Source of the DNA: a virus
DNA: 64,000 nt
Direction: 5' to 3' (one strand)
Virus genome (UHGV): UHGV-1455077
A model generated the notes under the pieces. It saw nothing but the letters and a program-made list of their open reading frames with translations, had not been told where the DNA came from and did not search any database. The translations under genes and the position numbers were made by a program. Every line of letters begins with the position of its first letter. Within the stretch, counting starts at the first letter, position 1. This document shows positions 7,939 through 47,700 of the stretch, one piece after another.

Positions 7939-7981
7939 TTGACAATAAAAATAAATGCTCTATATTTTGTGTATAGAGCAT
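7939..7981 (+). promoter_or_regulatory. promoter TTGACA-N16-TATATT overlapping a hairpin terminator
   Basis: TTGACA 7939-7944, TATATT 7961-7966. Inverted repeat AAATGCTCTATA/TATAGAGCATTT at 7951-7981 followed by a T run. Confidence 0.45.
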
Positions 7982-8008
7982 TTTTTATTACTGAAAGGAA
8001 TTTATTAA

Positions 8009-8706: not shown

Positions 8707-8980
8707 AATAAAATTTAAGAAATCAGGTATAATTATAAGTGTTCCAACATTTATAGATAAAGATAATGTTTTAAGATTTGAGAAATCATTTAATCCTAAG
8801 CCGTGGAATGAAAGAGAATGGAATGATTTATATCTTCAATGGTTAAGAGGAGAAATTTCCGATGAAGAATATATCATTGCAAGTATTGTTGACGGTGTAT
8901 CTGTTAATTTTATTGATGAAACATTTGGTTGGGAAGGGAATTTAGATATTATTGAAATATTGGGAGATAAAGATGAGTGA
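8696..8980 (+). CDS. hypothetical protein
   Basis: ORF overlapping its neighbours (coupled). Confidence 0.4.
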   Translation: MNTKIKFKKSGIIISVPTFIDKDNVLRFEKSFNPKPWNEREWNDLYLQWLRGEISDEEYIIASIVDGVSVNFIDETFGWEGNLDIIEILGDKDE

Positions 8981-9980: not shown

Positions 9981-10006
9981 TAATTAATATTTATGGAGAA
10001 AAATTT

Positions 10007-11242: not shown

Positions 11243-11252
11243 AGGTTAATTA

Positions 11253-11969: not shown

Positions 11970-12022
11970 TAAAATAATGTTATAAAAATATTGTATATAA
12001 TTTAATATTATGGAGAAAAATA

Positions 12023-16294: not shown

Positions 16295-16630
16295 ATGTAT
16301 GAAGTTAAAATTGCTAAAATAAATATGTTTGCTGAAGAATCTATCAATGAAATGTTTTCACAATTAGGAGAAATTCCACAATTAAATGTTACAATTGATT
16401 TTCATAATGAGCAAATATATAAGATATTTGTATTAAAAACTATTTCAACTTATATTGAACAAGTAATGCCAAATGTTTTAAATAGTTATGTTGCTTATTT
16501 AATTTATGAAAAATTGTTAGAAAAACATCCAGAATTAAAAGACGAAATAGTTAAAATTATGGAAAGTTTAGACAGTAATAAAGTACAAACGGAATTTAAG
16601 AAAAATATTTTACCATTGCCAAAGGATTAA
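16295..16630 (+). CDS. hypothetical protein
   Basis: ORF. Confidence 0.4.
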   Translation: MYEVKIAKINMFAEESINEMFSQLGEIPQLNVTIDFHNEQIYKIFVLKTISTYIEQVMPNVLNSYVAYLIYEKLLEKHPELKDEIVKIMESLDSNKVQTEFKKNILPLPKD

Positions 16631-16719
16631 AAAATATTAAAAAGATGTGATAATAATATTGCATCTTTTTTTCTTTTACCTCATAATAAATTTACTTATT
16701 ATGAAAAAGGAAAAAGAGA

Positions 16720-17223
16720 ATGGATAAGGATGTAGTAAAAGAAAAATATAATTGGGATAATAAGTTTAGTACACGATTTAAACTTGGAAATGAACAGACT
16801 TTACAAGTCATTCCTGATAATATTTTTATGGTGGAGTTGCCTGATTTGACAGTTGAGAATTATGCTGATATGATGAATGAAAACTGGTCTGCATCAGATA
16901 AAATATTAATATTGACTTTAAGAAGTACGAAAGATGGTTCAGTAGAAAGAGAGTTGTATGATGTATTGATGAGAACATCATTTGATTTTGAATTATCTTT
17001 ATCAAACCCAAATCAATGTCATTCAATTTATAAGGGATGTAGCGTTGAAAAAGTTAAATTTTCACCATTGTTAAATCGTCCAAACAAAGCAAATCCATTT
17101 AATTTAATTGTTTATATTAATGTGGAAGAAATTAAATATTGTGCGGCATCAGATACATTAATTTTTGGTAAAGTATCTAACAATGCATTAATTTCAGATA
17201 ATGAAGGGAATGCTAATGGTTAG
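16720..17223 (+). CDS. hypothetical protein
   Basis: ORF with RBS GGAAAAAGAGAATGG. Confidence 0.4.
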   Translation: MDKDVVKEKYNWDNKFSTRFKLGNEQTLQVIPDNIFMVELPDLTVENYADMMNENWSASDKILILTLRSTKDGSVERELYDVLMRTSFDFELSLSNPNQCHSIYKGCSVEKVKFSPLLNRPNKANPFNLIVYINVEEIKYCAASDTLIFGKVSNNALISDNEGNANG

Positions 17224-17728
17224 TAAATACAAAATATTAATTAATGATGATAAAAATACTATTATTATTCAATTAGAAGATAAAGAATTTTCACAAGTTA
17301 TAGCAAAAGTTGGAAATATTGCTTTTAATGCTAATAAAGAATTAGAATTTGATATGGAATTACCTAAAGGTATGGAAAGTTATTATGATAGTGATTCTTT
17401 TTGTGAAAAAATTCAAGAAGTTGTTGGTGATATTGTAATGAAATCAGTTAATTATGAATGGTCAACTGCTGAAAAAGCAGTCTTAATGGATTTAGAATCT
17501 AAAGTTCGCCAAGCATTTAAACCTTATAACTTTGAACCAGAAGAAAATTCTTCATTTATTGAAATGTTTGGTAAAAAAGGATTTGTTATTTCAGAAGATG
17601 ATAATGACCGTTTGACAGCAATAAAAATCAAAGATAATAAAACTTATTATTTTGATATGCCTGAACAGTTAGCATATTTGAAAAAAGAATTAACAGGCAA
17701 AGGTATTATTTTACTTGGAGATAAGTAA
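17201..17728 (+). CDS. hypothetical protein
   Basis: ORF, coupled to the gene upstream. Confidence 0.4.
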   Translation: MKGMLMVSKYKILINDDKNTIIIQLEDKEFSQVIAKVGNIAFNANKELEFDMELPKGMESYYDSDSFCEKIQEVVGDIVMKSVNYEWSTAEKAVLMDLESKVRQAFKPYNFEPEENSSFIEMFGKKGFVISEDDNDRLTAIKIKDNKTYYFDMPEQLAYLKKELTGKGIILLGDK

Positions 17729-17767
17729 TATATATTTTTGTTAATTTTTACAACAACTAAATTTAAG

Positions 17768-17797
17768 AATCTCCTTGGATTTTTCAAGGAGATTTTT
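17768..17797 (+). terminator. hairpin terminator ATCTCCTTG / CAAGGAGAT plus T run
   Basis: 9-bp stem, loop GATTTTT, then TTTTTAAG. Confidence 0.55.
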
Positions 17798-17855
17798 AAG
17801 TAAATGAATAAAAATAATATAATAAATACTTTTATATTAAAGATAAGGAACAATA

Positions 17856-18365
17856 ATGAATTTATTTTTGTTACAGCAATATCAATTTATTAATGATATA
17901 TATAAAAATGAAAATTATTTAGATGTTTTAATGAATATTGATGATTTTTTTGATATTTTAAATGTATATGCTTTTCCTAATTGGTTTGATGCCGAAGTTA
18001 TTGAAGTAAAATTTTTAAGACATTTTACTAATATTATATTAAAAACTCCTCGTGATAAAAAACCTGATATTAAAGGAAGTGTGTTATTATCAAAATATGA
18101 TTGTTTAGTTAAATATAAAGAATCATATGAATATCTTCCTAAAGAATATAAGACAGAAAAAGATATTAAATATAATACTCGTACAGGAAAATATGAACCA
18201 ATTATGGAGAAAAAAGATATATGGTTAATTGATATTTTGATTCCAAATAAACACATTATTAATGATAATGTTTATGATTTAGATGCCATTCAAAAGAAAT
18301 TGGATGATGAAGATGATAATGATGAAAATATTGAATCAGTTGTATCAAATGGTGATGAAATTTAA
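17856..18365 (+). CDS. hypothetical protein with acidic C-terminus
   Basis: ORF; ends DDEDDNDENIESVVSNGDEI. Confidence 0.4.
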   Translation: MNLFLLQQYQFINDIYKNENYLDVLMNIDDFFDILNVYAFPNWFDAEVIEVKFLRHFTNIILKTPRDKKPDIKGSVLLSKYDCLVKYKESYEYLPKEYKTEKDIKYNTRTGKYEPIMEKKDIWLIDILIPNKHIINDNVYDLDAIQKKLDDEDDNDENIESVVSNGDEI

Positions 18366-18374
18366 GGATAGTAA

Positions 18375-19064
18375 ATGAAATTATGTGAAGATTTAAGAGA
18401 AAAAGATTTAGCCAATTTAATTTCTTCTTATGTAAGTGTTGATGAATATACTTCAAAAATTGATGAAGATAATATTACTGTTGCTTTTTTTGTTAATGAA
18501 TTAGATGCCGCTGAAGAATTAGAAGATTTTATTGAGAAATTTTATTATATTGAAATTAGAGATATTGAAATTTCAGATTCTTTAACTGATGATAACAAAT
18601 ATATTATTTTTGTTGAATTAGAAAGAAATGATAGTTTTCCTAAAATATTTTTAGATATGATTGATACAATAAATTATGTAGCTGATAATAAAGATTGGAA
18701 TTTTTCTACCTATCAAATGAATAAGCCTGTTGAATTATCATTAGCTAATATTAGAAAATATGTTCGTTTAAGTAAATTAAGAGATACAGCGAATGTAGAG
18801 GAAAAAGAAAATAATCAAGAAGAAGTACAAGAAAGTTATCAACCATTTTTAGTTAATGATAATGGTTGGATAAGAAAATATACTCCAAAACGTTATATTA
18901 CAGAAGATGAATTAGAAAAAATTATTGAAAGTTCTGAAACATTAAATAGTCGTGATGATGGAGAGGTATCTTTATTAGAAAATGCATTTCCTGGTTATGA
19001 AGTTATTACAACAGATAACAATGTATTTTTAATTAAACATAATAAAATTTTAATGATGGAATAA
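18375..19064 (+). CDS. hypothetical acidic protein
   Basis: ORF rich in D/E. Confidence 0.4.
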   Translation: MKLCEDLREKDLANLISSYVSVDEYTSKIDEDNITVAFFVNELDAAEELEDFIEKFYYIEIRDIEISDSLTDDNKYIIFVELERNDSFPKIFLDMIDTINYVADNKDWNFSTYQMNKPVELSLANIRKYVRLSKLRDTANVEEKENNQEEVQESYQPFLVNDNGWIRKYTPKRYITEDELEKIIESSETLNSRDDGEVSLLENAFPGYEVITTDNNVFLIKHNKILMME

Positions 19065-34587: not shown

Positions 34588-35526
34588 ATGGCAAATGGAG
34601 ATGATTCATTAATTTTTGAAGAAGGAAATGAAAAAGATACTGATACATTTAGTGATATTCAACTAATTGATAAGTCGGTATATGATAATTTTGATGATTC
34701 TGAAAAGCCAAATTGGGTAAGATATTCACCTTCATTGCAAAGTCAAGCCTATGCTCAATGGATTGCGGCTCAAAATCAAATGATAAAATTATTTGGAGAA
34801 TTAGGGCCAGTATTTGATAAATTAATGCCATTTACAAAAGGTGGAATGACACTTCAACCAATCCCTTTAACTTCTTTAATTAATTCTATAAAAACGGTAA
34901 CATCAGTTGCAGAAACAATGGGAGACGTTGTTAATACAATTGCAAGTACAGCAATTGTAAATATTGTTGCTGAACCATTAAAAAATTTATTTGGCTTAAT
35001 TGGAGCATTGGGTGGACTAATTTATGCATTATATATGAATCCTTATCAATTTATTGAACCTTATACATCCGCTATTAAAGCAGTTGATTTAACAAATTTA
35101 AAAGAACAATTTAATGCTGAAACAACTCCTAATTTAGATTTATATACAACTAAAGTTGAAGAAATTCCAATTCCAGACCCAGATATTAAAGGAGAAATTG
35201 AAACTGCTAAAAATCAAATAAAAAATTTAAAGCCAACTGCTGAAGATATGCTTGCAACTGCTGATGCATTAAATGAAACAGCAAAAACGTTAGAAGGAAT
35301 TCCTGAAACTTTACAAGCTGTATCTACAATGGGTTGTTCTTGGGCATTTAATGCCGCATTAGATGAATTTAATATTAAATTTGACCAAACAAAATTGCCA
35401 AATGTTGACCCTAATAATCAAGCTAAACAATGGGCGGAAAACGTTAATAATTTAGTTAACAAATTACCAGTTAAATATATTAAAGTTTCAGATTTAGAAA
35501 AATTAAAACAACTTGACAAATCTTAA
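34588..35526 (+). CDS. hypothetical protein (structural module)
   Basis: ORF coupled to the spike gene. Confidence 0.35.
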   Translation: MANGDDSLIFEEGNEKDTDTFSDIQLIDKSVYDNFDDSEKPNWVRYSPSLQSQAYAQWIAAQNQMIKLFGELGPVFDKLMPFTKGGMTLQPIPLTSLINSIKTVTSVAETMGDVVNTIASTAIVNIVAEPLKNLFGLIGALGGLIYALYMNPYQFIEPYTSAIKAVDLTNLKEQFNAETTPNLDLYTTKVEEIPIPDPDIKGEIETAKNQIKNLKPTAEDMLATADALNETAKTLEGIPETLQAVSTMGCSWAFNAALDEFNIKFDQTKLPNVDPNNQAKQWAENVNNLVNKLPVKYIKVSDLEKLKQLDKS

Positions 35527-35541
35527 AATATATTATAATAT
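35513..35541 (+). promoter_or_regulatory. sigma70-like promoter TTGACA-N17-TAATAT
   Basis: TTGACA 35513-35518, upstream of ORF 35569. Confidence 0.4.
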
Positions 35542-36038: not shown

Positions 36039-36539
36039 ATGGAAATATTCACCGATGGTAGTCACTCTTTAAAACCAAGGATGAGTGGAGTCGGTGCGGT
36101 TATTTTGAATAATGGTCACGAGCATCAAATAGGTGCATATACTGATAAATGTGTGGATAATAATGTGGCAGAAGTTGTAGCAATAGCTTTTGCCATTAAA
36201 TATATTAAAGACCATAAAATTATTGATAATTCAAAAGATAAAAATTTAATAATTTATTCTGATTCTGCCAATGCTTTAAGAAAAATTCGTCAATTATCAC
36301 CAGGTAAAGATGAATTTGAACAAACTGCGTTAGATTTTATTCAAGATTTTTTACAAACAACATCAAAAAAAGTTACATTTTTTCAAATTAAAGGTCACGT
36401 TCACGATGGAACAAAATTATCTCACTATAATAATATAGCTGATAGTTTAGCATCTGATTATCGTTATCTTGGTTTAGTTAAATTACAAAATAGATTATAT
36501 AATCAATCTTTAAAACATAAAAAATCTAAATATAGATAA
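36039..36539 (+). CDS. rnhA: ribonuclease HI
   Basis: RNase H fold motifs FTDGS, AEVVAI, IYSDS, H..NN.ADSLA. Confidence 0.7.
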   Translation: MEIFTDGSHSLKPRMSGVGAVILNNGHEHQIGAYTDKCVDNNVAEVVAIAFAIKYIKDHKIIDNSKDKNLIIYSDSANALRKIRQLSPGKDEFEQTALDFIQDFLQTTSKKVTFFQIKGHVHDGTKLSHYNNIADSLASDYRYLGLVKLQNRLYNQSLKHKKSKYR

Positions 36540-36545
36540 AAACTA

Positions 36546-36573
36546 TTGACATTTATTTTTATTCTGTTATATT
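36546..36573 (+). promoter_or_regulatory. sigma70-like promoter TTGACA-N16-TATATT
   Basis: TTGACA 36546-36551, TATATT 36568-36573, upstream of ORF 36604. Confidence 0.45.
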
Positions 36574-36603
36574 GTTGCTAACATATATCATAAGGAAAAA
36601 TAA

Positions 36604-37092
36604 ATGTTAAAAATGATTTTATATATTTTAATGAGAAATGATTTGCCATCAATGAATGTTGGTAAAGCAATAGCACAGGCATCCCACGCTTCTGCACAAT
36701 TTGTAGAAAATTGTTCTAATAATTCAAATAAAGCATTTGATATTTGGAAAAATGAAGGTATTGGGTTTGGAACAACTATTGTATTAGAAGGTTCAAAAGA
36801 TTCAATTGATAAACTTATTGATAATGTTAAAACTAAACATTATTGTTTTTATAATGGAGTAATTGTAGATTTTACATATCCATTTAAAGCACAGAAAGAG
36901 TTACTTGATATTGCATCTTTTGAAGCAAAGTATAATATTCAAATTGTTGATGATACAATTGATAAATTTGGTATGGTTTCTTGTACAAGAAACGAACATA
37001 CTTGTTCATATATATTCTTGTCAATAACAGATGAAGAACAAGAAGAATTTAAAAAATTGTGTGAAGAATATAATATATATCTTCATAGATAA
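36604..37092 (+). CDS. Pth2-family peptidyl-tRNA hydrolase-like protein
   Basis: MILYILMRNDLPSMNVGKAIAQASHAS parallels the Pth2 segment [24 protein letters not shown]. Confidence 0.45.
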   Translation: MLKMILYILMRNDLPSMNVGKAIAQASHASAQFVENCSNNSNKAFDIWKNEGIGFGTTIVLEGSKDSIDKLIDNVKTKHYCFYNGVIVDFTYPFKAQKELLDIASFEAKYNIQIVDDTIDKFGMVSCTRNEHTCSYIFLSITDEEQEEFKKLCEEYNIYLHR

Positions 37093-37106
37093 GAGGAGAA
37101 ATAAAA

Positions 37107-37544
37107 ATGTCCAATATAACAATTGAAGATTTTAAAATTTTTAATTATTTATATGAAAAATTTGATAAAAAAATTGATTTGCTTTGGGAAATATTTTATC
37201 ATCCACATATTGATGAAGATGGTGAAGAAAAAGATGATGAATTTGAATATTGGTATCCAGTTTGTAATATTAATAAACATATTAATTCAGATGGAACTTT
37301 AACAGATACAATTGAAATTACAGGAAGTGCTGAAGATGGTTGGCACGATACTTATTATCACTCTATCTATTTGCCTTCGGAGTACATATTTAAAAATGAG
37401 CAAGAATTAAGAGATATTCGTCAAAAACAAATTGAAGAATATAATAAAAGAAAAGAAAAAGAAGAACAAAAATTAGAAAAAGAACAATTAACTAAAGAGT
37501 ATGAAGAATATATCAAGTTAAAAAATAAATTTGAAAAGGAATAG
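37107..37544 (+). CDS. hypothetical protein with charged coiled-coil C-terminus
   Basis: ORF with RBS AAGAGGAGAAATAAAAATG. Confidence 0.4.
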   Translation: MSNITIEDFKIFNYLYEKFDKKIDLLWEIFYHPHIDEDGEEKDDEFEYWYPVCNINKHINSDGTLTDTIEITGSAEDGWHDTYYHSIYLPSEYIFKNEQELRDIRQKQIEEYNKRKEKEEQKLEKEQLTKEYEEYIKLKNKFEKE

Positions 37545-37863
37545 TATGAAAAATATAGCTGATTTAAGAGAAATATATAATAATCATACTGATTTAAATC
37601 ATAAAGTGGAACAAATTTATGAGATATTTAAAAATTGTTCTCATTTTTATGTAGGAATAAGTCAGCCTATTAAAACAGAAAAGCATACATTTGCATTTTT
37701 TGAAATTGCACCAATTGCACCTTTGTTACATATATGGGTTAATTATATAGATGATAAAGGTGAATTAAATTGTTCACCTTTATTAAGAGTGCCATTGGAT
37801 TTTTTATTAAAAAGTAAAGAAGATTTATTAAAAATTAAGGAAGAAAATGAAAGACAAATATGA
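37531..37863 (+). CDS. hypothetical protein
   Basis: ORF, coupled. Confidence 0.35.
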   Translation: MKRNSMKNIADLREIYNNHTDLNHKVEQIYEIFKNCSHFYVGISQPIKTEKHTFAFFEIAPIAPLLHIWVNYIDDKGELNCSPLLRVPLDFLLKSKEDLLKIKEENERQI

Positions 37864-38035
37864 ATATGAAGAAGTTGAAGAATTTCAAGATGAAATTTTA
37901 AAAAAGCAAAAAGGAGAGTTTGATTTAAAACAAGAAAGACTTAATGCAATTTATAAAAATAAGGAGCAATATAAAAGTTTAAAAATTGCTGAAAGATTAA
38001 GACAGGAAGTATTAAGAGAGAAATCAAGAAAATGA
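37847..38035 (+). CDS. hypothetical small charged protein
   Basis: ORF, coupled. Confidence 0.3.
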   Translation: MKDKYEYEEVEEFQDEILKKQKGEFDLKQERLNAIYKNKEQYKSLKIAERLRQEVLREKSRK

Positions 38036-38241
38036 CGAGATATGATGAAAATAAAAAAATAGTTTCAAAAATTTCTGAATTTATTGAACGATGTCCAGAT
38101 ATGAGGTTTATTCAACTTTTATGGGCATTAGGAATTGTAAATTCAGAAGATAGATTTTATGAAGAATCTGAAACAACGTACAAAATTGTGGAAAAATATT
38201 GTAATAAAGTAATTGGAATTGATGAAGATGCAAATATATAA
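38032..38241 (+). CDS. hypothetical small protein
   Basis: ORF, coupled. Confidence 0.3.
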   Translation: MTRYDENKKIVSKISEFIERCPDMRFIQLLWALGIVNSEDRFYEESETTYKIVEKYCNKVIGIDEDANI

Positions 38242-38521
38242 ATGTATGAAAAATCGTTACATTGATAAACACGGAAGTATCAGGGAATATGTTAGTTTTA
38301 TTCATCAAAAGAAAATGTCAACAAATGAGAAAGAAGATTGCTTTTTTAATGTTAATGATTTAATTGAAAAAACAAATGGTGGGCAATATATTCAATTACC
38401 TGAAAATCAAAAACAATATCAATATTATAAATTGGTATATGATTTGATTAAAGTTTCGGAAGATGGGTTAACAGTATATGAAGTACCAATTAATTTACGT
38501 TTAGAGGAATATAGTGAATAA
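38213..38521 (+). CDS. hypothetical protein
   Basis: ORF, coupled. Confidence 0.35.
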   Translation: MELMKMQIYKCMKNRYIDKHGSIREYVSFIHQKKMSTNEKEDCFFNVNDLIEKTNGGQYIQLPENQKQYQYYKLVYDLIKVSEDGLTVYEVPINLRLEEYSE

Positions 38522-38960
38522 TAGATTTAAATATAGATTATGGGATGAACTTGAACAGAAATTTAATTATTATGATTTATTAAATTCTGAAAGTGTATTC
38601 AATTTTGGATATGATATTGAAGAAGATATGATTAATTATAATGGAAGAGTTTCTCTTAAAGATACTGATAAAAGCTTTGTTCGTTTAGAACAAGGTTGTT
38701 CACTTATTGATGAGGATAATAAAAATCTTTATGAAGGCGATATTGTAAGTGTAACAAGATATATCAATGAATGGTCGGATGAAAAAACAGAATATATTGG
38801 TATTATTAAATATTTTTCTGATTTTAATTCATTAGGAATTGAAACTATTGATAAACAATTTAATACAGCATTTGCCATTGATAAATTAATAACAAATATT
38901 AAATTACTGGGAGATATTCATCAAAATAAAGATATTTTAAAGGATTATAATTATGAGTAA
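38514..38960 (+). CDS. YopX-like phage protein (tentative)
   Basis: C-terminal IKLLGDIHQNKDIL resembles the YopX family ending (v)iGNIyENpeLL. Confidence 0.3.
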   Translation: MNNRFKYRLWDELEQKFNYYDLLNSESVFNFGYDIEEDMINYNGRVSLKDTDKSFVRLEQGCSLIDEDNKNLYEGDIVSVTRYINEWSDEKTEYIGIIKYFSDFNSLGIETIDKQFNTAFAIDKLITNIKLLGDIHQNKDILKDYNYE

Positions 38961-39660
38961 TGAATATAAAGATTGGTTATATGATATTCAATACGATGAA
39001 GCATTTGAATATGCTTATTTTAAGCATTTAAACCAACGAAGAAAATATACAGATGAAAATTATATTAATCATCCAATCAGAGTACAACAAATTTTTTATG
39101 ACCATATGAATACTGCTGAAACTTATGGATATTTTGACCGTAGTGAAGAATTAGCATTATCTTGTGCCTGTATTTTACACGATGTGGTTGAAGATACAGA
39201 TGCAACATTTGTTGAAATTGAAGAAAAATTTGGAATATATGTTAGAAATTTGGTATATTGGTTAACAAATGTTTCAACACCAGAAATGGGTAATAGAGCA
39301 TATAGGAAAAAAATTGATTTACAACATACTTTACAAGCTCCAATTGAAGCAATTTGTATTAAGTTAGCAGATGTTATTGATAATTGCTCAAATATTGTCG
39401 AATCTGAACGATTTTATAATGATAACTTACGATTGGTAACAGAACTTCCTTCAAATTTTGCTGAAAAATATCTTAATGAAAAGAAAACATTTTTAAAAGC
39501 ATTATGGAAACTTAAAAAAGATAAATTTGATAAAATACCATCTACTATTGATTCTAATAGTATGTTTTATTGGAATAGATGGCTAATAGTATTTGAAAAA
39601 TTATATAATGATTGCTATAAAATTATTGAAGAACAATTAAAATTATTAAATAATTCGTAA
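38953..39660 (+). CDS. HD-domain (p)ppGpp hydrolase-like protein (small alarmone hydrolase, SpoT/Mesh1-type)
   Basis: HPIRVQQIF ... ACILHDVVEDTDATFVEIEEKFG ... LVYWLTNVS matches the RelA/SpoT hydrolase HD motif HPL.VA...AALLHDVIEDT..T.E.I...FG. Confidence 0.65.
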   Translation: MSNEYKDWLYDIQYDEAFEYAYFKHLNQRRKYTDENYINHPIRVQQIFYDHMNTAETYGYFDRSEELALSCACILHDVVEDTDATFVEIEEKFGIYVRNLVYWLTNVSTPEMGNRAYRKKIDLQHTLQAPIEAICIKLADVIDNCSNIVESERFYNDNLRLVTELPSNFAEKYLNEKKTFLKALWKLKKDKFDKIPSTIDSNSMFYWNRWLIVFEKLYNDCYKIIEEQLKLLNNS

Positions 39661-39963
39661 ACCGTTTTTCCAATAAAATTCTAAATCATCATCTGAATCA
39701 TACCGAATTTTAGCAAATTGTAAATGGGATATTGCATCTTGTGGAGATATATTAAACCATTCGCCACAAGATTTTTTATCTTTTAAATCTCTATGAATTA
39801 AATGTTCAATAATTCTTACTTTAGAATCTTGAACTTCTTCTTTATAAAATAATTGTAACTTATTCATATTTCCTGTTTGTAGTTGTTTTAATCTTTTTTC
39901 AGGAGTTTTTGAAAAGCCAATTTTAACTTGATTTTCTGTGCCGATTACATATATATAACTCAT
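39646..39963 (-). CDS. T5orf172 / GIY-YIG-like domain protein (free-standing, homing-endonuclease-like)
   Basis: YIYVIGTENQVKIGFSKTPEKRLKQLQTGN follows the T5orf172 pattern. Lone minus-strand gene overlapping the 3' end of the HD-hydrolase gene. Confidence 0.5.
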   Translation of the reverse strand: MSYIYVIGTENQVKIGFSKTPEKRLKQLQTGNMNKLQLFYKEEVQDSKVRIIEHLIHRDLKDKKSCGEWFNISPQDAISHLQFAKIRYDSDDDLEFYWKNGLRII

Positions 39964-40000
39964 AAAAATATTTATTTTTGTATTTTTTGTAAAAAAGGTA

Positions 40001-40029
40001 TTGACAAATGATTTTATATATAATATAAA
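40001..40029 (+). promoter_or_regulatory. sigma70-like promoter TTGACA-N17-TATAAA
   Basis: TTGACA 40001-40006, in the divergent region next to the T5orf172 gene. Confidence 0.4.
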
Positions 40030-40190
40030 TATGATTGTAAAGAGGTTATGGAAAAGAGTTCGCTTGATAGACGATTATTTGTATTTTTCAATTTTTAAAG
40101 CAAATAATACAAGAGGAGATTAAAATTGATGTTCATAACAGGGTGTTAATAAATCCCTAATGCCAGAGGACATAGCGTCTGGATATTTTT

Positions 40191-40226
40191 AAAGGAGATG
40201 ATTACCTTTCGTCATCTCCTTTTTCT
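40191..40226 (+). terminator. strong hairpin AAAGGAGATGA / TCATCTCCTTT plus T run, with no long ORF upstream of it
   Basis: 10-11-bp stem, loop TTACCTTTCG, then TTTTCTT. Confidence 0.45.
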
Positions 40227-40239
40227 TATAAATAATAAT

Positions 40240-40734
40240 ATGAAATTGAATGAACTTATACATAATACTTTATTAGATTTTTTATTGGAAGCAGAACGAA
40301 GCCATCCGAAAACTTCGTTTGATACTTATAAACAGTTACAAACTTTAAAACGTTATGGTTTTGATTTAAGTAAAGATATTCTCCAAAACCAAATGGATAA
40401 TGATTATGTTGCTCGTGTATATCAAATCATTCATAATCATTGTAAACTACTTAATATTGAAATATATAATTGGTTAAAACAAAACTATCATTTTAGAAAA
40501 ATAAGTTGGCAAGAATCTAAAACAACTATTTCACAATATATTCATATTATTTTAATGAATGGAAAACATATTGATATTCGTATATCTGACCATCGTGGTC
40601 AATTAAATGATAGTAGTAGAATTAATACATTAAACATTTATTATAATACACCATTTAATGATATTCTTAAAAATAAAATTAAATATTTTATTGAAACACA
40701 CTCTGAAAAATCCAAATTTCAAAAAACTGCTTGA
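40240..40734 (+). CDS. hypothetical protein
   Basis: Start moved to MKLNELIHN because the listed upstream part coincides with the terminator hairpin. Confidence 0.4.
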   Translation: MKLNELIHNTLLDFLLEAERSHPKTSFDTYKQLQTLKRYGFDLSKDILQNQMDNDYVARVYQIIHNHCKLLNIEIYNWLKQNYHFRKISWQESKTTISQYIHIILMNGKHIDIRISDHRGQLNDSSRINTLNIYYNTPFNDILKNKIKYFIETHSEKSKFQKTA

Positions 40735-40758
40735 CAAATAATTTATCTGTTTTAATAT
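40730..40758 (+). promoter_or_regulatory. sigma70-like promoter TTGACA-N17-AATATA (weaker -10)
   Basis: TTGACA 40730-40735. Confidence 0.3.
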
Positions 40759-40776
40759 ACGATTAGTATTAACTTT

Positions 40777-41505
40777 ATGAAAGAAAAAATTATGTATATT
40801 AAAACAGTTTATGATTTGATTGAGTATTCTAAAAATCATCCAAATTATGAATATACCTATTATGATGGCGATTGGATTGTTTATGATGATAAAGATAATT
40901 TGATTGATGAAAAAGAAGTTAAACTGAACAGTATAATGATGCGACAACTTGCAGATATGAATGTTATATCTTTTAAAGGTTATGTTATTTCACATAGAGC
41001 CGTTAGAAGGTATTGTGTTGATGAAAGTTTTGAAGAAAAAATTGCAATTATCAAAAAAATGCTAACCGATATTATTGTTACTGTTAAAGATGTTAAAATT
41101 AAATCATTAAAACACATTTCACAAATATTTGAAGATAGATATAAAATTTTTGCCGATACTGAAACAGAAGAAGGTTCTTATTGGGGTGGTTGCTATGAAG
41201 TTAGAAAACTTCATTTTTGTAATGATTTAAAATTTTGGGGCAGTAAAGTTGTATGGGAATATACTTACTATGTGGCTGGCAATTGCTTGGGGTCAAAGTT
41301 TTATAAAAATATGATTAATTTGTATTCTCAAGTATTTGGTGGTTGGGATGTATCCAGTAAAAATTATAAAAGATATATTGATGATAAACATAATTCATTT
41401 GTTACTGATGATGAATGGTTTAAACTAAGAGATGAAGCATTTGAAAAATCATATATTGAATGTTTAGAATATGTAAAAGGACATAAAAATGACACAAACG
41501 ATTAA
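40777..41505 (+). CDS. hypothetical protein
   Basis: ORF. Confidence 0.4.
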   Translation: MKEKIMYIKTVYDLIEYSKNHPNYEYTYYDGDWIVYDDKDNLIDEKEVKLNSIMMRQLADMNVISFKGYVISHRAVRRYCVDESFEEKIAIIKKMLTDIIVTVKDVKIKSLKHISQIFEDRYKIFADTETEEGSYWGGCYEVRKLHFCNDLKFWGSKVVWEYTYYVAGNCLGSKFYKNMINLYSQVFGGWDVSSKNYKRYIDDKHNSFVTDDEWFKLRDEAFEKSYIECLEYVKGHKNDTND

Positions 41506-41788
41506 TACATTTACTTGGAAAACAGCATCAGGAGAAATTTATACTCTTGACGAACTTAGTACAGAACATATTTTGAATATTATTAAATTTTTGGAAAAAA
41601 GAATGACTATTCATAAAGAAAAATATATTGAAAAGTATGGTTTTACAGAACGTTCGTTAATACGAATGACTATTTCAGCAATTAGAGTTTTTGAAGATGA
41701 ATTATTTGATAGAGGAGTTGATTATTTAACTATACGAAATCACATTGAAGATACATCTTTTTTAAAAAATGTTAAAAATGCCTATTGA
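41489..41788 (+). CDS. hypothetical protein
   Basis: ORF, coupled. Confidence 0.35.
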   Translation: MTQTINTFTWKTASGEIYTLDELSTEHILNIIKFLEKRMTIHKEKYIEKYGFTERSLIRMTISAIRVFEDELFDRGVDYLTIRNHIEDTSFLKNVKNAY

Positions 41789-41812
41789 CAAGTAATTTTT
41801 ATATGTTATATT
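41785..41812 (+). promoter_or_regulatory. sigma70-like promoter, second copy of the 32-bp element CCTATTGACAAGTAATTTTTATATGTTATATT
   Basis: Exact 32-bp repeat of 21582-21613, at 41781-41812. Confidence 0.5.
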
Positions 41813-41843
41813 CATAATAGTTTTAATTTATTGGAGAAAATTA

Positions 41844-42053
41844 ATGCTTAATAATCATAATGAATATAACGAAAAATTAACAGAGTTATTTTGGAATGGA
41901 TTATTAGAAGATGGATTATATGAATGTAATCTAACCAATGGAACAACAGATGTATATATTTTACGAGATGGAAGTTTTTATAAAACTTCTATTTCTAGTG
42001 GTGAACCTATTGACTTATTTGAAATTATGTCAATTATAAGACAGTTTGATTAG
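41844..42053 (+). CDS. hypothetical small protein
   Basis: ORF with RBS TGGAGAAAATTAATG. Confidence 0.35.
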   Translation: MLNNHNEYNEKLTELFWNGLLEDGLYECNLTNGTTDVYILRDGSFYKTSISSGEPIDLFEIMSIIRQFD

Positions 42054-42063
42054 GAGAAATAAA

Positions 42064-42180
42064 ATGAAAAAGAAATTTGTTGTATGGAAAAACCAAGATT
42101 CATTGTGGAAACATATTCGCAAGGCTCGTAAAAAACAGTTTTGGAAAAAAGTTCGTCAATTTCTTAAAACTACTAATTAA
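42064..42180 (+). CDS. unlisted small basic ORF (38 aa, MKKKFVVWKNQDSLWKHIRKARKKQFWKKVRQFLKTTN)
   Basis: RBS TTAGGAGAAATAAAATG and tight packing between neighbours; below the size cut-off of the ORF track. Confidence 0.3.
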   Translation: MKKKFVVWKNQDSLWKHIRKARKKQFWKKVRQFLKTTN

Positions 42181-42192
42181 TGGAGAAAAATT

Positions 42193-42375
42193 ATGAGTAA
42201 TGAAAAGATTTTTGATTTATTAGTTTTAGAAGATGGTTGCAATTTTCAATTACCATATTCAATTTTAATTGAAGAAAAATCTAAAAATTTCATTAAAAAA
42301 TTAGATGAATTAGAAGTTTTTGAAAAAATTATGGATGAATCCAATCCATATTTAGAAATTAGACGTATTAAATAA
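42193..42375 (+). CDS. hypothetical small protein
   Basis: ORF with RBS TGGAGAAAAATTATG. Confidence 0.35.
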   Translation: MSNEKIFDLLVLEDGCNFQLPYSILIEEKSKNFIKKLDELEVFEKIMDESNPYLEIRRIK

Positions 42376-42394
42376 TTAAAAAGGAAATAATATT

Positions 42395-42814
42395 ATGGCA
42401 TTACATACTGATTATATTCATATAGTTTCTAATTCTGATAAAACTAAAGATGTATATTTTTTTGATGATAAATTAAAAGGAAAACAAAAAAATAATTGGC
42501 AAATATATTTTAATAAAGATTTTTTGAAATCTAAAAATATTGCAACTTTTAAAGTTGAAAATGAAAAATTATTTGCAAAATTTCATACAATTGTTAAAAT
42601 TGAAGAATGGCAAGAAATTGGTGATGCCATTACAAAAGAAAGTATTAAAGAACATCATTATATGAAAATTGAAAACGAAAAAACCAAAGAGGGAAAGGAT
42701 TTATTAAGCCAAAAAATTGCAGATGAAAAAAATGCTTATGATGTTATAATGTATGCTTATTGGAAATTTAAAGAACAATATCCTGAATTTGTAAGAATTA
42801 CTATGCAAGAATAA
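42395..42814 (+). CDS. hypothetical protein
   Basis: ORF. Confidence 0.4.
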   Translation: MALHTDYIHIVSNSDKTKDVYFFDDKLKGKQKNNWQIYFNKDFLKSKNIATFKVENEKLFAKFHTIVKIEEWQEIGDAITKESIKEHHYMKIENEKTKEGKDLLSQKIADEKNAYDVIMYAYWKFKEQYPEFVRITMQE

Positions 42815-42845
42815 TAAAAATTGTTTAAAATATAAGAGGAAACAA

Positions 42846-44111
42846 ATGAGAACTTATTTAGTTGGCGGAGCAGTAAGAGATATGCTACTTGGAAAAGAAC
42901 CACACGATAAAGATTATGTGGTTGTAGAATCATCAGTAGATGAAATGTTATCATTAGGTTATCAACAAGTAGGTAAAGATTTTCCTGTTTTTCTTCATCC
43001 AATAACAGGTGAAGAATATGCACTTGCAAGAACTGAAAGAAAAACTGGAAATAAACATACTGATTTTGAATTTTTTGCTGATTATGCTGTTACCTTATTT
43101 GAAGATTTAGGTCGCCGTGATTTTACTATGAATGCTATTGCTTTTAATATTGAAAATGAAAGTTGTTGGAGTTGTTGCTTAAATGACCCTTTTAAAGGCG
43201 TAAATGATATTAGAAATAAAATTATTCGTCATATTAGTGATTCATTTAAAGAAGACCCACTTCGTGTTTTACGAGCTTGTAGATTTTCAGCACAACTTGG
43301 ATTTGAAATTGCTTCTGAAACTATGGAATTAATGTCAAATATGGTAAATGATGGAATGTTAAATCATTTAACTGTTGAAAGAGTTTGGAAAGAAACTGAA
43401 AAAGCATTATCTTCTGGCTATGATTCTGAAAAATATTTTGAAACTCTTAATCAATGTGGTGCATTGAAAGTATTGTTTCCAGAAATATATAGACTTGTTA
43501 ATACACCTGAACAAGTAAAATATCATCCTTCTGGAAATACTTTTAAACATACAATGATTGCTTTATCAAGAGTTAAAAATGAAAATTCTTTAACAAAATT
43601 TGCCGTTGTTTGCCACGATTTAGGAAAAGGTACAACTCCTGTTGATATTTTACCTAAGCATAGCGGACACGATGAAAGAGGATTAACAGAAATTGATTCT
43701 TTGTGTGATAGACTAAAAGTTCCAAATAATTATAGAAATTGTGCAAAAACATTTTGTAAAAATCATATGCGTATGGCTCGTTTTAATGAAATGAATGTTA
43801 AAAAACAATATGATATGATTAAAGAATTATCAAATAATTTTAAAGAACAAATGCTTTTGGAATTATATATTGATTGTTTTTATGCTGATTGGACAGGTGA
43901 AAATGAACAAACAGCTTGGAATAATTTAGATGAAGCAGATGCAATTACGACAAAAATGAGAAAAATATTTTCTTTAATGGAAAGAATTACTTTAAAAGAT
44001 TTACCAGAAAAAACACAAGAAGATTTAAGTAAACAAAAAGGTGAAAAATTTGGTAAACTTTATCGTGATGCAATGATAAGTTATTTAAAATATAAATTGA
44101 AAAATTCTTAA
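42846..44111 (+). CDS. cca: tRNA nucleotidyltransferase (CCA-adding enzyme) with HD domain
   Basis: YLVGGAVRDMLLG ... HDKDYVV (Pol-beta NT motifs), GRRDFTMNAIA, HD-domain VCHDLGKG. Confidence 0.7.
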   Translation: MRTYLVGGAVRDMLLGKEPHDKDYVVVESSVDEMLSLGYQQVGKDFPVFLHPITGEEYALARTERKTGNKHTDFEFFADYAVTLFEDLGRRDFTMNAIAFNIENESCWSCCLNDPFKGVNDIRNKIIRHISDSFKEDPLRVLRACRFSAQLGFEIASETMELMSNMVNDGMLNHLTVERVWKETEKALSSGYDSEKYFETLNQCGALKVLFPEIYRLVNTPEQVKYHPSGNTFKHTMIALSRVKNENSLTKFAVVCHDLGKGTTPVDILPKHSGHDERGLTEIDSLCDRLKVPNNYRNCAKTFCKNHMRMARFNEMNVKKQYDMIKELSNNFKEQMLLELYIDCFYADWTGENEQTAWNNLDEADAITTKMRKIFSLMERITLKDLPEKTQEDLSKQKGEKFGKLYRDAMISYLKYKLKNS

Positions 44112-44192: not shown

Positions 44193-44684
44193 ATGACAAA
44201 TAATTTAATGTCAATTTATGATAATTTTTTTAATAACAAAAATTCTTTTGTTGGTTTCAATGATTTTTTTAAAGATTTAAATATGTTTGATTTAATGCTT
44301 GATGAAAGAGGTATTAAAGATTCTTTCCCTGCATATAATGTTTATACAAAGGCAATTAATGTTGCCGCAGAAAATGAAGACCCAATTCTCATTGACCATA
44401 CATTTATTGAAGTTGCCTGTGCTGGATATGGAAAAGATAATTTAGAACTTAATTATGATGAAGATTTCCATATTTTAACAATTGAAGGTAATAAAGTTGC
44501 AAATGATTCAAAAGAACAGAATTATAATTATAAAGGAATTGCAACTCGTTCATTTAAACGTATGTGGAAATTAAATGAAAAATTGAAATTTGTTAAAGCT
44601 AAATATGAAGATGGTATTTTAACAATTGAATTTGAACCAGAAATAAAAGCAACAAGTGAAATTAAATCACTTCCAATTGAATAA
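44193..44684 (+). CDS. small heat-shock protein (Hsp20/alpha-crystallin family)
   Basis: PAYNVY ... LELNYDEDFHILTIEG ... IATRSFKRMWKL ... AKYEDGILTIEFEPE follows the alpha-crystallin domain pattern. Confidence 0.5.
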   Translation: MTNNLMSIYDNFFNNKNSFVGFNDFFKDLNMFDLMLDERGIKDSFPAYNVYTKAINVAAENEDPILIDHTFIEVACAGYGKDNLELNYDEDFHILTIEGNKVANDSKEQNYNYKGIATRSFKRMWKLNEKLKFVKAKYEDGILTIEFEPEIKATSEIKSLPIE

Positions 44685-44709: not shown

Positions 44710-47700
44710 CTAATCATTCGCACCCCATTTAATTGTATCAATATTTCCATAAATTTCTTTTAAAAACCAACCAAATTTTTCTTTTGTAATTTCTATTGCA
44801 TCATCAATATCGTCATCTTCTGAAATATAGGGCCAAACTAAAACTTCATTGTTATCTCCTAATGTACCAACAATATCACCATCAACATCAGCATATTCCA
44901 TAACTGCACCGTGCATAGCAACGCCAGCATCCCATACATATAATGTTTTTGATTGAGAATTATATACAAATCTAAAAGCTCCATATTCTGTTTTACTAAA
45001 AGTATTTCTTATCCATTCTGCCGAAGGATTTTTCCAAACTTTTAATTGAATATAATTTTCACTATATTCATCATAAACTTCTTCATTAAAATATAATGAT
45101 TCATTTAAATTAAATCTTTTAACATCCAGAACTTGAACATCTTTAGGATTAAATATAACAAAACATCTTCCATCTTGTTCACCAACATAAGTAATACCTT
45201 TAATACCATATTTTAGTAATACCATAGATGCTTTTTTAGAAGTTTCAAAAGCGTAAACCATTTTAGAATAAATTTCTTGACCTGTATCTGTATCTTCAAA
45301 TTCTAAATTAAATATGTTATTAATTTTATACAATTTATCTTTGATAGATGGAAATTGTTGATTTAAAGTTCTGTCTTCATATAAGTACCCATTTTCAGGT
45401 ATATCGCAAGTATAAACATAAGAAGGTTCTTGTTTAATATAATCTAATAATTTTAATTGAATTTTCTTTTGTTTAATTCTTTTTTTGATATTCTCAAGCA
45501 TTTGTGAGTTATTGTTACCCATAGAATTCCAATGTTTTAAACTTAATTCGTAATCTTTTATTAAATAATTCAATTCTTCTCTATAATCTGGAATAGTATA
45601 AGATGTAACATTAGCAAAAAAATTATATAATGTTTCATTATCTTTTTGATTTATTTTTTTATTTCCAAGATAAACACCAGTATCATTCCATTTTATTAAT
45701 TGACCTTTAAAATATGTTTTTTTGTTTACAGAAAATGTTTTAGCATATTTTTCGCCAATTTTTCTATCTAATGCATAATATAATCCCCAACCGTGTGCTT
45801 GATTTCCTTCGCCTGAACCAATAGCAATCAAAGAAGGTTTTTCATACTGTGTTGGAGAACCAGCATAAACTCTCATTTCATTAATTTGATGTTTGCCATT
45901 ATATTTTTCAATAAGAAGTTTATATAATTTTGTATCTAAAAAGTCATCAGTTCTATAATAAACAACAAAATTTTTACAAATAATCATATCATCAAAATAA
46001 TCATTTTTTCTATCAAAAGAAAAATAATCATTTTCATCAATTAAAATAGCAGGAAGATTTTCCCAATATTCATCTTTTTCACGTTGATTTTTAAAATTAT
46101 AATAACCTGCTTGAATAGCATAATCAAATAATTGATTATGTATATTAAATAAAGAATTGCCAATAATATATAAATTTTTATTTGTATCAATTAAAACTCT
46201 CATAGAAGGAATTTTATTAGTTAATTTAATAACATCGTAAACATTATTTGTAATATAAATTGGTGTATGAATAGTTTCAATTGTTTGTAATGATTCTTTT
46301 ATAGTATTATTTGAATCCCACATTTTATGCAATGTATCGTAAATAACTTGTATTTGATGCTCATCAAATTTCCATAATTTACCAATGTTTTCATCAGCCC
46401 ATTCAAAAGGTGTATTTCCGTAATATTCTGACATAGCACACCAATCTGCACACATTTCATATAATGCTTCATCGGGCATTTTACCTCTTACATCTGGTGC
46501 TTTAAAATAACTATTTTTATCCCAATGTTGAGAATGATGAGCATTATTACGATAATGTAATTCTTGAGCTACTTTAAATGATTTCCATTCCTCATCAGTA
46601 CAATTCATTTTACCCCAAATAAAACCTTTAATGTAAGGAATTAATAATTCTTTTGAAAATTTATCAGCATCGTGATTTGGATATTGTTTGTTTATTTTAG
46701 AAGCATATTTATTAACTAAATTTTTATGATTTTCATAATGTTGTTTAAATTCTTTTACATCTTCTTCAGATATTTTTTTATTTTCAACATTTTCATTTAA
46801 ACATTCATCAACATTTTCTGAATAAGGAGACCATAATCCTTTATTATAAACAGATTTAATTTGTGAAGGATTCCAAACAATATATTCATCTATAATATTA
46901 TTTGAACCACCCATTGGTGTACAATTATCAAGTACATTTTTAAAAATTACTCCATCAAATGATTCTTGCTGTATATATTCATCATTTTCTTCATCATAAG
47001 TTTCTAATTTATTAATAATATCATAATATAAATCTTCATCAAATAAATCATTGTTAAAATCAACATTACCTTGTAATGTTGCAATGATGGTATGACGAAC
47101 AGAATGGTTAAGCATACCCCCCTCAAAATCATAAATATAAGGATTTTCAATTTGAAGAAATGATGGGTTAATAGTTGGATTTTCTAATTTCTTTTCTCTA
47201 ATTTCTTCAGCATAAGCATACCAATCTTTTTCTTTGTCTATACCTTTATCATAAAATTCACTTTCTTTTGCTCTTACTTCAGCTTCACCTGAATAATCAA
47301 GAGCGGCATCTTTATCTGATGTGAAATAAAATGCACCTTCTTCATTATTACCTGTGTTTAAACTACAATAATTTTTATCAAATCTTTTAATATTAACATT
47401 GCTTCCGTGATAACAAATTAATGGATTACCATTCACATCAACAACTTTGGAATTACCAAACCATTTCCAGAAATTATCATTTAATAAATATTCTTGTTTT
47501 AATTCTTTTGAATTATTTGAATTAATCTTTTTATTTTCAAAATCAATGTCATCTCCAACATTTACTTTATTAAATGTTCCTTCTCCAAACCAGTTATCTA
47601 TAATTTTTTGATGATACCATTGTCCATCATCTAATTTGATTTGATTTTTATATTTGTCTTCAACAACTGATTCATCTAATAAACCTAAATCGTCATCGGC

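Follow-up and report, generated by a model that had tools for sequence, protein, structure and literature searches.

The 64,000-nucleotide stretch of UHGV virus genome UHGV-1455077 analysed here (the window) carries, between 35.5 and 44.7 kb, genes for three putative enzymes of the tRNA acceptor end and of alarmone metabolism: a Pth2-like hydrolase, a small alarmone hydrolase (SAH) and a CCA-adding tRNA nucleotidyltransferase. On balance, we lean towards reading this region as an early-type, multi-promoter accessory block in which the three enzymes are loosely co-located and act independently of each other. The window is part of a jumbo phage genome of ~288 kb and 25% GC, an assignment made because near-identical and related contigs are 203-288.6 kb long: parts of the window are 97-99.7% identical at the nucleotide level to a 216.8-kb IMG/VR contig (UViG_3300045988_152892), related IMG/VR contigs measure 203-282 kb, and proteins of the window are found on contigs of up to 288.6 kb. 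Its GC content is 21-30% in each 2-kb bin and ~25% overall.

A first-pass annotation of this DNA had described a cluster of six genes, for RNase HI, a Pth2-like hydrolase, a YopX-like protein, an HD hydrolase, a CCA-adding enzyme and Hsp20. All six are present, each scoring above its Pfam gathering threshold and with support from PHROG families. The cluster, placed by that annotation at 36039-44111, is slightly longer, as the Hsp20 gene starts 82 nt past position 44111 and the true span is 8.65 kb. Nor does everything in it lie on one strand: the T5orf172/GIY-YIG open reading frame (ORF) at 39646-39963 is on the minus strand, and a shared strand is in any case uninformative here because almost every ORF of at least 90 aa between positions 578 and 44684 is on the plus strand. 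The six named genes occupy ~45% of the span, the other ~55% being made up of some 14 ORFs without family match. The annotation had further read the cluster, together with a ligase at 10 kb, as a toolkit for keeping tRNAs, ribosomes and the stringent response under phage control, or as counter-defence. What stands of this proposal is its core, since the Pth2-like protein, the SAH and the CCA-adding enzyme look catalytically competent and the reading matches a published prediction for jumbo phages (PMC7824862). RNase HI (replication-type), the YopX-family protein, Hsp20 (a generic chaperone) and the ~14 ORFs without relatives of known family (ORFans) are neighbours and not components of a tRNA toolkit, and the link to the distant ligase is not supported either.

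Three putative enzymes of the tRNA acceptor end and the alarmone pathway

The CCA-adding enzyme (42846-44111, plus strand; 421 aa) is a predicted class II tRNA nucleotidyltransferase of the E. coli Cca type, with a putative C-terminal HD domain. It matches the PolyA_pol (PF01743, 72 bits) and PolyA_pol_RNAbd (PF12627, 42.4 bits) profiles as well as phrog_2244 (3e-119), and carries the motifs GGAVRD at residue 7, DKD at 21, RRD at 90, EDPLRVLRA at 136 and HDLGK at 257. The last of these lies in the C-terminal half and points to the HD domain that the earlier annotation had assigned to the enzyme, whereas the Pfam HD profile scores 16.7 bits, below its threshold of 22. Against its best NCBIfam model, NF008137 ('multifunctional CCA addition/repair protein'), the enzyme scores 416.3 bits over residues 1-365, far above its scores with the PcnB (108 bits) and A-adding enzyme (68 bits) models. 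Its head, neck and putative HD architecture and its diagnostic motifs are those of the E. coli multifunctional Cca and of phage homologues such as gp159 of PVP-SE1; the difference from the E. coli enzyme is that the equivalog cutoff of NF008137, 451 bits, is not reached. Homologues were found in 498 phage records, and identity to phage homologues is 38-42%.

In one close relative, L003 (ENA k99_80908, positions 16332-18513), the CCA gene is split into a nucleotidyltransferase ORF of 246 aa, equivalent to residues 1-242, and an HD ORF of 176 aa, equivalent to residues 249-421, and a minus-strand gene for a 276-aa TnsA-like endonuclease sits exactly at the domain boundary. L003 and another relative, L012, also possess an extra 99-aa ORF directly upstream of the CCA gene, which is not found in the window. 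In Salmonella phage PVP-SE1 (positions 8001-12143), CCA gene gp159 is followed, three genes on and within less than 3 kb, by gp162, a 162-aa 'hydrolase', and then by gp166, an RNA-repair nucleotidyltransferase of the RlaP family. We considered gp162 as a second, very divergent case of a Pth2-CCA pairing and did not use it as evidence, its match to PF01981 being 18.8 against 23 bits and its hhalign probability 63%.

The SAH (38953-39660, plus strand; 235 aa) is an HD pyrophosphohydrolase of the Mesh1/SpoT type (PF13328 HD_4, 33.8 against 27.2 bits; phrog_990, 1e-31), in which the Pfam scan gave no match to the RelA_SpoT synthetase domain. Both strings by which the first-pass annotation had recognised it, INHPIRV and ILHDVVEDT, were confirmed. 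All residues of the hydrolase site are present (H40, H76-D77, E80-D81, D140 and N144), with INH40P, LH76D77VVE80D81TD and KLAD140VIDN144 aligning with Mesh1; at the ED position, 5vxa, an inactive MESH1 variant, departs from this pattern. The best matches in the PDB are Drosophila Mesh1 (3nqw, 8e-15) and human MESH1 (1e-11), and SAH-like proteins occur in 194 phage records. One of the relatives, gp099 of phage SSU5 (35% identity, E = 7e-30), is apparently the one that Jimmy et al. 2020 tested, which we conclude from its annotation and a tblastn match. In that study, two stand-alone phage SAHs, from the Salmonella phages PVP-SE1 and SSU5, neutralised all five of the toxSAS tested, and it was proposed that incoming phages bypass alarmone-based abortive infection by means of their SAHs (PMC7229694). 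The toxSAS add a pyrophosphate to tRNA at its 3'-CCA end, and the non-phage SAHs MESH1 and ATfaRel remove this 3'-pyrophosphate and restore aminoacylation (Kurata et al. 2021). Like the phage SAHs of SSU5 (PaSpo) and PVP-SE1 (PbcSpo) and the type IV antitoxin ATfaRel, the window protein is a predicted HD_4 hydrolase that stands alone and has its HD...ED...D/N motif intact; it differs from them in being longer, with internal and C-terminal extensions.

The Pth2-like protein (36604-37092, plus strand; 162 aa) scores 39.9 bits against PF01981, for a cutoff of 23, and belongs to phrog_1866. Catalysis by Pth2 involves the Lys of a GK motif and an Asp (D86 in S. solfataricus numbering). In the profile alignment, D89 of the phage protein falls on D86 of the S. 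solfataricus enzyme (1xty), and the motif R-x-D...GK..AQ..HA is common to the phage protein and canonical Pth2, which together argue for membership of the Pth2 superfamily. Within an alignment of 32 phage-type sequences, R11, D13, S16, G20, Q25, H28, W48, F55-G56-T57, D89, Y92, E99, R129, E131 and T133 are invariant, and K21 is K or R across the family. The AlphaFold2 (AF2) model built on this alignment has a predicted local distance difference test (pLDDT) score of 92.7; its top six Foldseek matches in the PDB are all Pth2 (1rlk, 3erj, 1xty, 1q7s, 2zv3 and 1wn2), with target-normalised template modelling (TM) scores of 0.67-0.75, and the best matches among viral folds are proteins from phages and giant viruses that carry the annotation peptidyl-tRNA hydrolase. 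Judged from alignment and model, the protein is a member of the Pth2 superfamily that retains the predicted catalytic pair and belongs to a distinct phage subfamily. The 131 homologues retrieved are 125-183 aa long, nearly all are flagged by PF01981 and many come from contigs of 180-390 kb; those from cultured phages (27 records) belong to large or jumbo alphaproteobacterial phages and are usually annotated as aminoacyl- or peptidyl-tRNA hydrolases. Fold, N-terminal motif and catalytic Asp are thus shared with archaeal and eukaryotic Pth2 (1xty; human Bit1/PTRH2, 1q7s), whereas the phage protein is ~12-17% identical to them, carries an insertion modelled as a long beta-hairpin region and is found in large phages only.

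In the reading that we favour, (p)ppGpp and (pp)pApp would be substrates of the SAH, which would also remove from tRNA CCA ends the 3'-pyrophosphate added by effectors of the toxSAS/CapRel type. The CCA nucleotidyltransferase would rebuild shortened CCA ends, its HD domain clearing 2',3'-cyclic or 3'-phosphate ends, and the divergent Pth2-fold esterase would free tRNA from peptidyl or N-acyl-aminoacyl esters. The likeliest benefit would be that translation continues while the host, or its abortive-infection systems, attack tRNA.

Allele replacement between near-identical phages

The new element of this analysis is a pattern of allele replacement, which emerged when 44.7 kb of the window, divided into 298 bins of 150 nt, were compared with four relatives (L095, L012, L001 and L175). 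Divergence from these otherwise 98-100% identical phages is confined to a few sharply bounded patches, and all three large substitution cassettes fall within the region described above. One of them (36604-37092) coincides with the Pth2-like ORF, which is 82% identical to that of L012 at the nucleotide level and 77% at the amino acid level. Another (40198-40734, plus strand) coincides with a hypervariable ORF of 178 aa, which has no family match and lies beside an endonuclease-like gene; it is ~63% identical in nucleotides to its counterparts in L012 and L003, between flanks of ~99%. The third (~42750-43350) covers the head half of the CCA gene, with 77% nucleotide and 73% amino acid identity to L012. 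The other genes of the region, including those for RNase H, YopX, the SAH and Hsp20, are 97-100% identical at the amino acid level, and the HD half of the CCA-adding enzyme is 95.5% identical. Because the window allele of ORF 40198 resembles its counterpart in the more distant L013 (1e-105) more than that in the near-twin (3e-42), recombinational exchange of alleles is indicated.

Cassette exchange of this kind suggests either selection by host immunity, as for tail fibres, or co-conversion by homing endonucleases. For co-conversion, the T5orf172 ORF abuts ORF 40198, the TnsA-like gene splits the CCA gene of L003, and a NUMOD3 ORF abuts the CCA gene of the T4-like jumbo contig L007; no endonuclease gene flanks the Pth2-like cassette.

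Some smaller differences were seen elsewhere in the window. A divergent patch at 7651-7800 lies directly upstream of an HNH endonuclease gene (7939-8706), and another, at 57.45-57.75 kb, falls in ORFs without Pfam match directly upstream of the Mtd_N genes, within which there is an indel of ~800 bp (59.1-60.0 kb). A further divergent bin (53255-53404) is located at the edge of a compared block.

Predicted promoters and transcription units

A generic promoter scan showed no overall enrichment (98 sites against 91 +/- 8), and the strict pattern TTGACA-N15-18-TANNNT was the only informative one. It occurs 14 times on the plus strand of the window and five times on the minus strand, compared with 3.5 +/- 1.8 in shuffled sequences. 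In the co-directional block 1-44700, 7 of the 11 strict sites end 19-36 nt before the start of an ORF, a zone that makes up ~3.5% of the sequence. Four sigma-70-like promoters are predicted on the plus strand of the region. The most upstream (35513-35541; TTGACA-N17-TAATAT, with TATAAT ending at 35539 as an alternative -10 element) lies ~30 nt upstream of ORF 35569, which precedes the RNase H gene. The putative promoter at 36546-36573, 31 nt upstream of the Pth2-like gene, has an extended -10 element (TTGACA-N16-TG-TATATT) and agrees with the consensus at 11 of 12 positions. The remaining two are found at 40731-40758, 19 nt upstream of ORF 40777, and at 41785-41812, again with an extended -10 element, 32 nt upstream of ORF 41844 at the predicted start of the CCA-Hsp20 unit. 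A fifth, looser match precedes ORF 40198.

From these sites we predict separate units for ORF 35569 with RNase H, for the Pth2-like gene through YopX and the SAH, for ORF 40198, for ORFs 40777-41788, and for ORF 41844 through the CCA-adding enzyme and Hsp20. Transcription of the region thus looks like that of several early-type units read by the host RNA polymerase, to judge by the promoter-like motifs. With at least four predicted promoters, and given the re-ordering of its genes in relatives, the region is not one operon.

The same plus-strand motif (TTGACA-N16/17-[TG]-TATATT or TAATAT) recurs in the window at 6990, 13602, 21586, 25280, 35513, 36546, 40731, 41785 and 55373, mostly 19-36 nt before ORF starts; the site at 6990 is 284 nt upstream, and that at 55373, which was not scored, is apparently in range. 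One and the same 28-mer makes up the sites at 21586 and 41785. The block of virion genes at 25.3-35.5 kb contains no site of this motif, which suggests a partition into early and late genes.

Conservation and linkage across phages

Close relatives (L003 and L012-L014) have the same gene order as the window. In L005, a 269-kb contig with a Pth2-like protein of 55% identity, the genes are arranged as RNase H, CCA, Hsp20, ART-PolyVal (minus strand), Pth2-like, HD_4 and YopX, all within 17 kb; as the same six genes are thus found in another order, the set has been retained but shuffled. Beyond these relatives, the Pth2-like gene lies near a CCA gene in L007, L035, L052, L058 and L084 and adjoins an SAH gene in L038. 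In L007 it ends ~2.3 kb before the CCA gene, in L009 it is ~2.3 kb from a Thg1-like gene, and in Ruegeria phage RpAliso it is located within an array of more than 20 tRNA genes.

We screened 80 IMG/VR loci with a Pth2-like gene (1.30 Mb) for linked genes using phmmer and ARAGORN, 77 of them, with 1.24 Mb of flanking sequence, being outside the lineage of the window. Among these 77, there were four solid CCA matches, at four loci and at 1.5-6.4 kb, and four weak ones; an SAH gene was found at one locus (0.5 kb), RNA ligase genes at three and tRNA arrays at seven.

Other neighbourhoods were also seen. In phiM12 (L010) and vB_EliS-L02 (L094), the Pth2-like gene is a few kb from a gene pair for NAD reconstitution, encoding an NMN adenylyltransferase/Nudix protein and a nicotinate/nicotinamide phosphoribosyltransferase. 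In phiM12, a Macro-domain gene adjoins it as well, and an RNA ligase gene is 5 kb away.

Competing explanations

Several observations weigh against independently acting acceptor-end and alarmone enzymes as the theme of this block. If each genome had one randomly placed CCA gene, 5-8 of them would be expected in the 1.24 Mb screened, and four solid ones were found; with genome sizes and CCA prevalence unknown, we claim no enrichment, and the linkage of the Pth2-like gene to CCA, SAH or tRNA genes is recurrent but loose and not demonstrably above chance. In phiM12, vB_EliS-L02 and Atu_ph07, the Pth2-like gene is near NAD-salvage or Macro genes or, in the case of Atu_ph07, near unannotated genes. 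No tRNA genes were detected by ARAGORN in the 64-kb window or in the 10-kb flanks of four related contigs. The allele replacement could stem from homing-endonuclease co-conversion and not from selection by host immunity, and for this phage we infer the substrates, the timing of expression and any role in counter-defence. Finally, the Pth2-like protein misses the NCBIfam equivalog cutoffs for archaeal Pth2 by a wide distance (NF003314, 33.1 against 126 bits; TIGR00283, 21.9 against 82 bits) and is ~40 residues longer than canonical Pth2, owing to the insertion that follows the D89 motif and precedes the C-terminal strand; because of both, its substrate may differ. A Pth2-fold esterase with another substrate, for instance an acyl or nucleotide ester made by host immunity, would also accord with the PF01981 match being limited to the N-terminal two thirds (residues 5-82, profile positions 2-76 of 115), with the additional invariant residues W48, Y92, E99, R129 and E131, and with the Macro and NAD-salvage neighbours in phiM12 and vB_EliS-L02. 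W48 is unmatched in the aligned part of canonical Pth2, and Y92 to E131 fall outside the comparison, as the PDB alignments end at about D89. The protein nevertheless keeps the canonical R-x-D...GK...AQ..HA motif as well as the catalytic Asp, and its gene is recurrently associated with tRNA genes and tRNA enzymes; we regard a different substrate as unlikely.

The main rival to independent acceptor-end and alarmone enzymes is housekeeping of translation capacity, in which a very AT-rich jumbo phage overloads the translation apparatus of its host: the CCA-adding enzyme would mature or maintain phage or host tRNAs, the Pth2-like protein would recycle peptidyl-tRNA lost from ribosomes when translation is heavy or meets rare codons, and low ppGpp levels, kept so by the SAH, would let translation and the synthesis of rRNA and tRNA go on. 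A genome of 25% GC fits this explanation, as do the Pth2-like genes in or beside tRNA arrays in RpAliso and at seven IMG/VR loci and the frequency of CCA enzymes among large tRNA-bearing phages (the 498 records mentioned above). The growth of phage lambda, moreover, is limited by the Pth activity of its host (bar minigenes, pth(rap) hosts). Phage infection can also raise alarmone levels (discussed in PMC7229694). However, the lack of tRNA genes in the window and the available flanks counts against housekeeping too, hosts already encode Pth, Cca and SpoT, so that the duplication needs explaining, and the sharp replacement of the Pth2-like and CCA head alleles is less expected of pure housekeeping enzymes; we judge this explanation possible, if somewhat unlikely. 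It is rather doubtful, and a shade more so, that the genes are coincidental neighbours and the 'cluster' an artefact of annotation, accessory genes of any function piling up in plastic regions. A name can be given to only six of the ~21 ORFs, ORFans fill 55% of the span, RNase H, YopX and Hsp20 have no link to tRNA, and the neighbourhoods of Pth2-like genes vary widely, with a linkage statistic not distinguishable from chance; yet the same set stays together in L005 despite its re-ordering, and CCA, SAH, Thg1, RNA ligase or tRNA arrays are near the Pth2-like gene at ~15 of the 77 loci. At the other extreme, the Pth2-like protein, the SAH and the CCA/HD enzyme might work sequentially on the same damaged tRNA, as a single coordinated pathway of acceptor-end repair. 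Three such genes would come within 7.5 kb of each other by random placement in ~217 kb with p ~0.004 (our own estimate, uncorrected for post-hoc selection and modular genome structure), they are together after rearrangement in L005, and the distance from the Pth2-like gene to a CCA gene is 1.5-6.4 kb in five other lineages. A dedicated, coordinated module is nevertheless the least supported reading, and a very unlikely one: between the genes lie ORFans, at least three predicted promoters and an endonuclease gene on the other strand, gene order is not conserved (L005), most Pth2-like loci have neither CCA nor SAH nearby, the three chemistries address different, mutually independent lesions, and neither fusion proteins nor a conserved translational coupling join them.

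A more specific proposal is that the three enzymes are a counter-measure to immunity directed at the acceptor end (3'-pyrophosphorylation by toxSAS/CapRel, CCA-tail cleavage of the Cas12a3 type, acetylation of aminoacyl-tRNA by GNAT toxins, nucleotidylation of the MenT/AbiEii type), the allele replacement being the mark of an arms race; this we consider improbable. The counter-defence targets put forward in the first-pass annotation, namely GNAT toxins, acceptor-end nucleases and alarmone-based abortive infection, are pure inference. Its inclusion of PrrC and RloC went too far, as these are anticodon nucleases and the enzymes of the set act at the acceptor end. Repair of the PrrC/RloC type is not evidenced in the window, because the ligase is 26 kb away from the cluster, is of the DraRnl type and has no partner polynucleotide kinase (PNK) or phosphoesterase among the ORFs scanned, that is, its neighbours and ~50 other larger ORFs in 64 kb of a ~288-kb genome, several window ORFs being unscanned.

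We also tried, and rejected, an interpretation of the region as a phage-borne defence or toxin-antitoxin module, as there is no toxin-like or synthetase partner. PADLOC gave no defence-system match for the Pth2-like protein, the SAH, the CCA-adding enzyme, YopX or the ORFans, and the T5orf172 ORF weakly matches the candidate system PDC-S57.

Relation to known systems

A survey of 224 jumbo phages (Iyer, Anantharaman, Krishnan, Burroughs & Aravind, Viruses 13:63, 2021; PMC7824862) lists CCA-adding enzyme, PTH2, HD-alarmone phosphodiesterase, RNA ligases, Hsp20 and polyvalent proteins with an ART domain among the features of these phages and gives a rationale of RNA repair, ribosome rescue and action against alarmone nucleotides. 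Components and rationale are the same in the window; the difference is that the survey is an inventory at the level of genomes, whereas in the window 7.5 kb hold all three tRNA-related genes and the ligase is distant. The toolkit interpretation accordingly re-derives, for the most part, a published genomic prediction, for which there is experimental backing in the case of phage SAHs only. As gene set and rationale had already been published for jumbo phages, our finding extends the known picture and does not change it.

The Pnkp-Rnl1 system of phage T4, which mends the anticodon loop after cleavage by PrrC, is similar in that a phage enzyme repairs tRNA damage inflicted by the host, and the window does contain an RNA ligase. 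This ligase is, however, of the DraRnl type (TIGR02306) and not Rnl1, no PNK was seen among the larger ORFs scanned, and the enzymes of the region would act at the acceptor end. More generally, PNK, RlaP, Thg1, RtcB and tRNA genes were not found in the window, many of whose smaller ORFs were unscanned.

Acceptor-end immunity (toxSAS/CapRel, Cas12a3) has recently become prominent, and the answer of phages to tail cleavage is an open question, the Cas12a3 study calling for 'yet unknown means of resistance' to the cleavage of tRNA tails (PMC12851939). If the counter-measure proposal were true, the enzymes described here would supply the resistance sought in that study. With three intact candidate enzymes in a small, early-looking region and natural alleles of two of them in near-isogenic phages, the locus is a convenient test bed.

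Neighbouring genes and genomic context

RNase HI (36039-36539, plus strand; 166 aa) is a type 1 RNase H (PF00075, 58 against 25.8 bits; phrog_531) whose catalytic carboxylates D6, E45, D74 and D134 align with those of RNase HI structures; it is 99-100% identical at the amino acid level in close relatives and probably functions in replication or primer removal. The YopX-family protein (38514-38960, plus strand; 148 aa), of unknown function, matches PF09643 (29.1 against 22.4 bits) and phrog_98, scores 37.6 bits with TIGR01671, under the cutoff of 41.3, and the 3' end of its gene overlaps the start of the SAH gene by 8 nt. The small heat-shock protein of the Hsp20/alpha-crystallin family (44193-44684, plus strand; 163 aa) matches PF00011 (38.6 bits) and phrog_432 (2.6e-21), and its gene adjoins the CCA gene in L003, L005 and L012-L014 as well.

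Between the Pth2-like and YopX genes are five small plus-strand ORFs (37107-37544, 37531-37863, 37847-38035, 38032-38241 and 38213-38521), which belong to no Pfam or PHROG family and are restricted to the close lineage. The T5orf172/MUG113 ORF (39646-39963, minus strand; 105 aa) is GIY-YIG-like and resembles homing endonucleases (PF13455, 53 bits; PF10544, 47.6 bits; PHROG endonuclease families). It consists of the nuclease-like domain alone, is convergent with the SAH gene, the last 15 nt of which it overlaps, and is 100% conserved in close relatives. Two hairpins (40140-40225) are found within and beyond the 234-nt intergenic gap upstream of ORF 40198; one has a 12-bp stem (40191-40222) that holds the ribosome-binding site and ATG of this ORF. 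They could serve as a terminator or in translational control, and the true start of the ORF may be an internal Met at codon 15. Two lineage-specific ORFs follow on the plus strand, one of 242 aa (40777-41505), the largest of the ORFans, with no Pfam, NCBIfam or PADLOC match and five homologues among 5.8 billion proteins, and one of 99 aa (41489-41788), with no Pfam match and a weak one to phrog_16964 (1.8e-4). The four small plus-strand ORFs that precede the CCA gene are located at 41844-42053, 42046-42180 (44 aa), 42193-42375 and 42395-42814; no family match was obtained for the three that were scanned (41844, 42193 and 42395).

The 'ligase at 10 kb' of the first-pass annotation is indeed an RNA ligase (10007-11242, plus strand), of the DraRnl (DRB0094) type and carrying an OB domain at its N terminus (PF09414, PF21189; TIGR02306, 159.8 against 151.15). 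No Rfam family reached its gathering threshold in the whole window, and a megablast search of 50,697 phage records with the 8-kb region gave no match and hence no cultured close relative. Other genes in the window encode an SbcC-like nuclease, two DNA methylases, the HNH endonuclease and a ClpA/B-like ATPase, whose nearest cultured relatives are in PA5oct-like and other jumbo phages. Virion and baseplate proteins are encoded at 28.8-35.5 kb, and two tail-fibre-like genes with the N-terminal domain of the major tropism determinant (Mtd_N) at 58330-60146. Convergent with the Hsp20 gene is that of a 1507-aa polyvalent protein (44710-49233, minus strand) with an ART-PolyVal ADP-ribosyltransferase domain (PF18760, 59.7 bits) and DUF5662 (PF18907, 62.8 bits). 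Sequence analysis has led to the proposal that such polyvalent proteins are injected together with phage DNA (Iyer et al. 2021, PMC7824862), and the adjacency of CCA, Hsp20 and minus-strand ART-PolyVal genes is also seen in the re-ordered L005.

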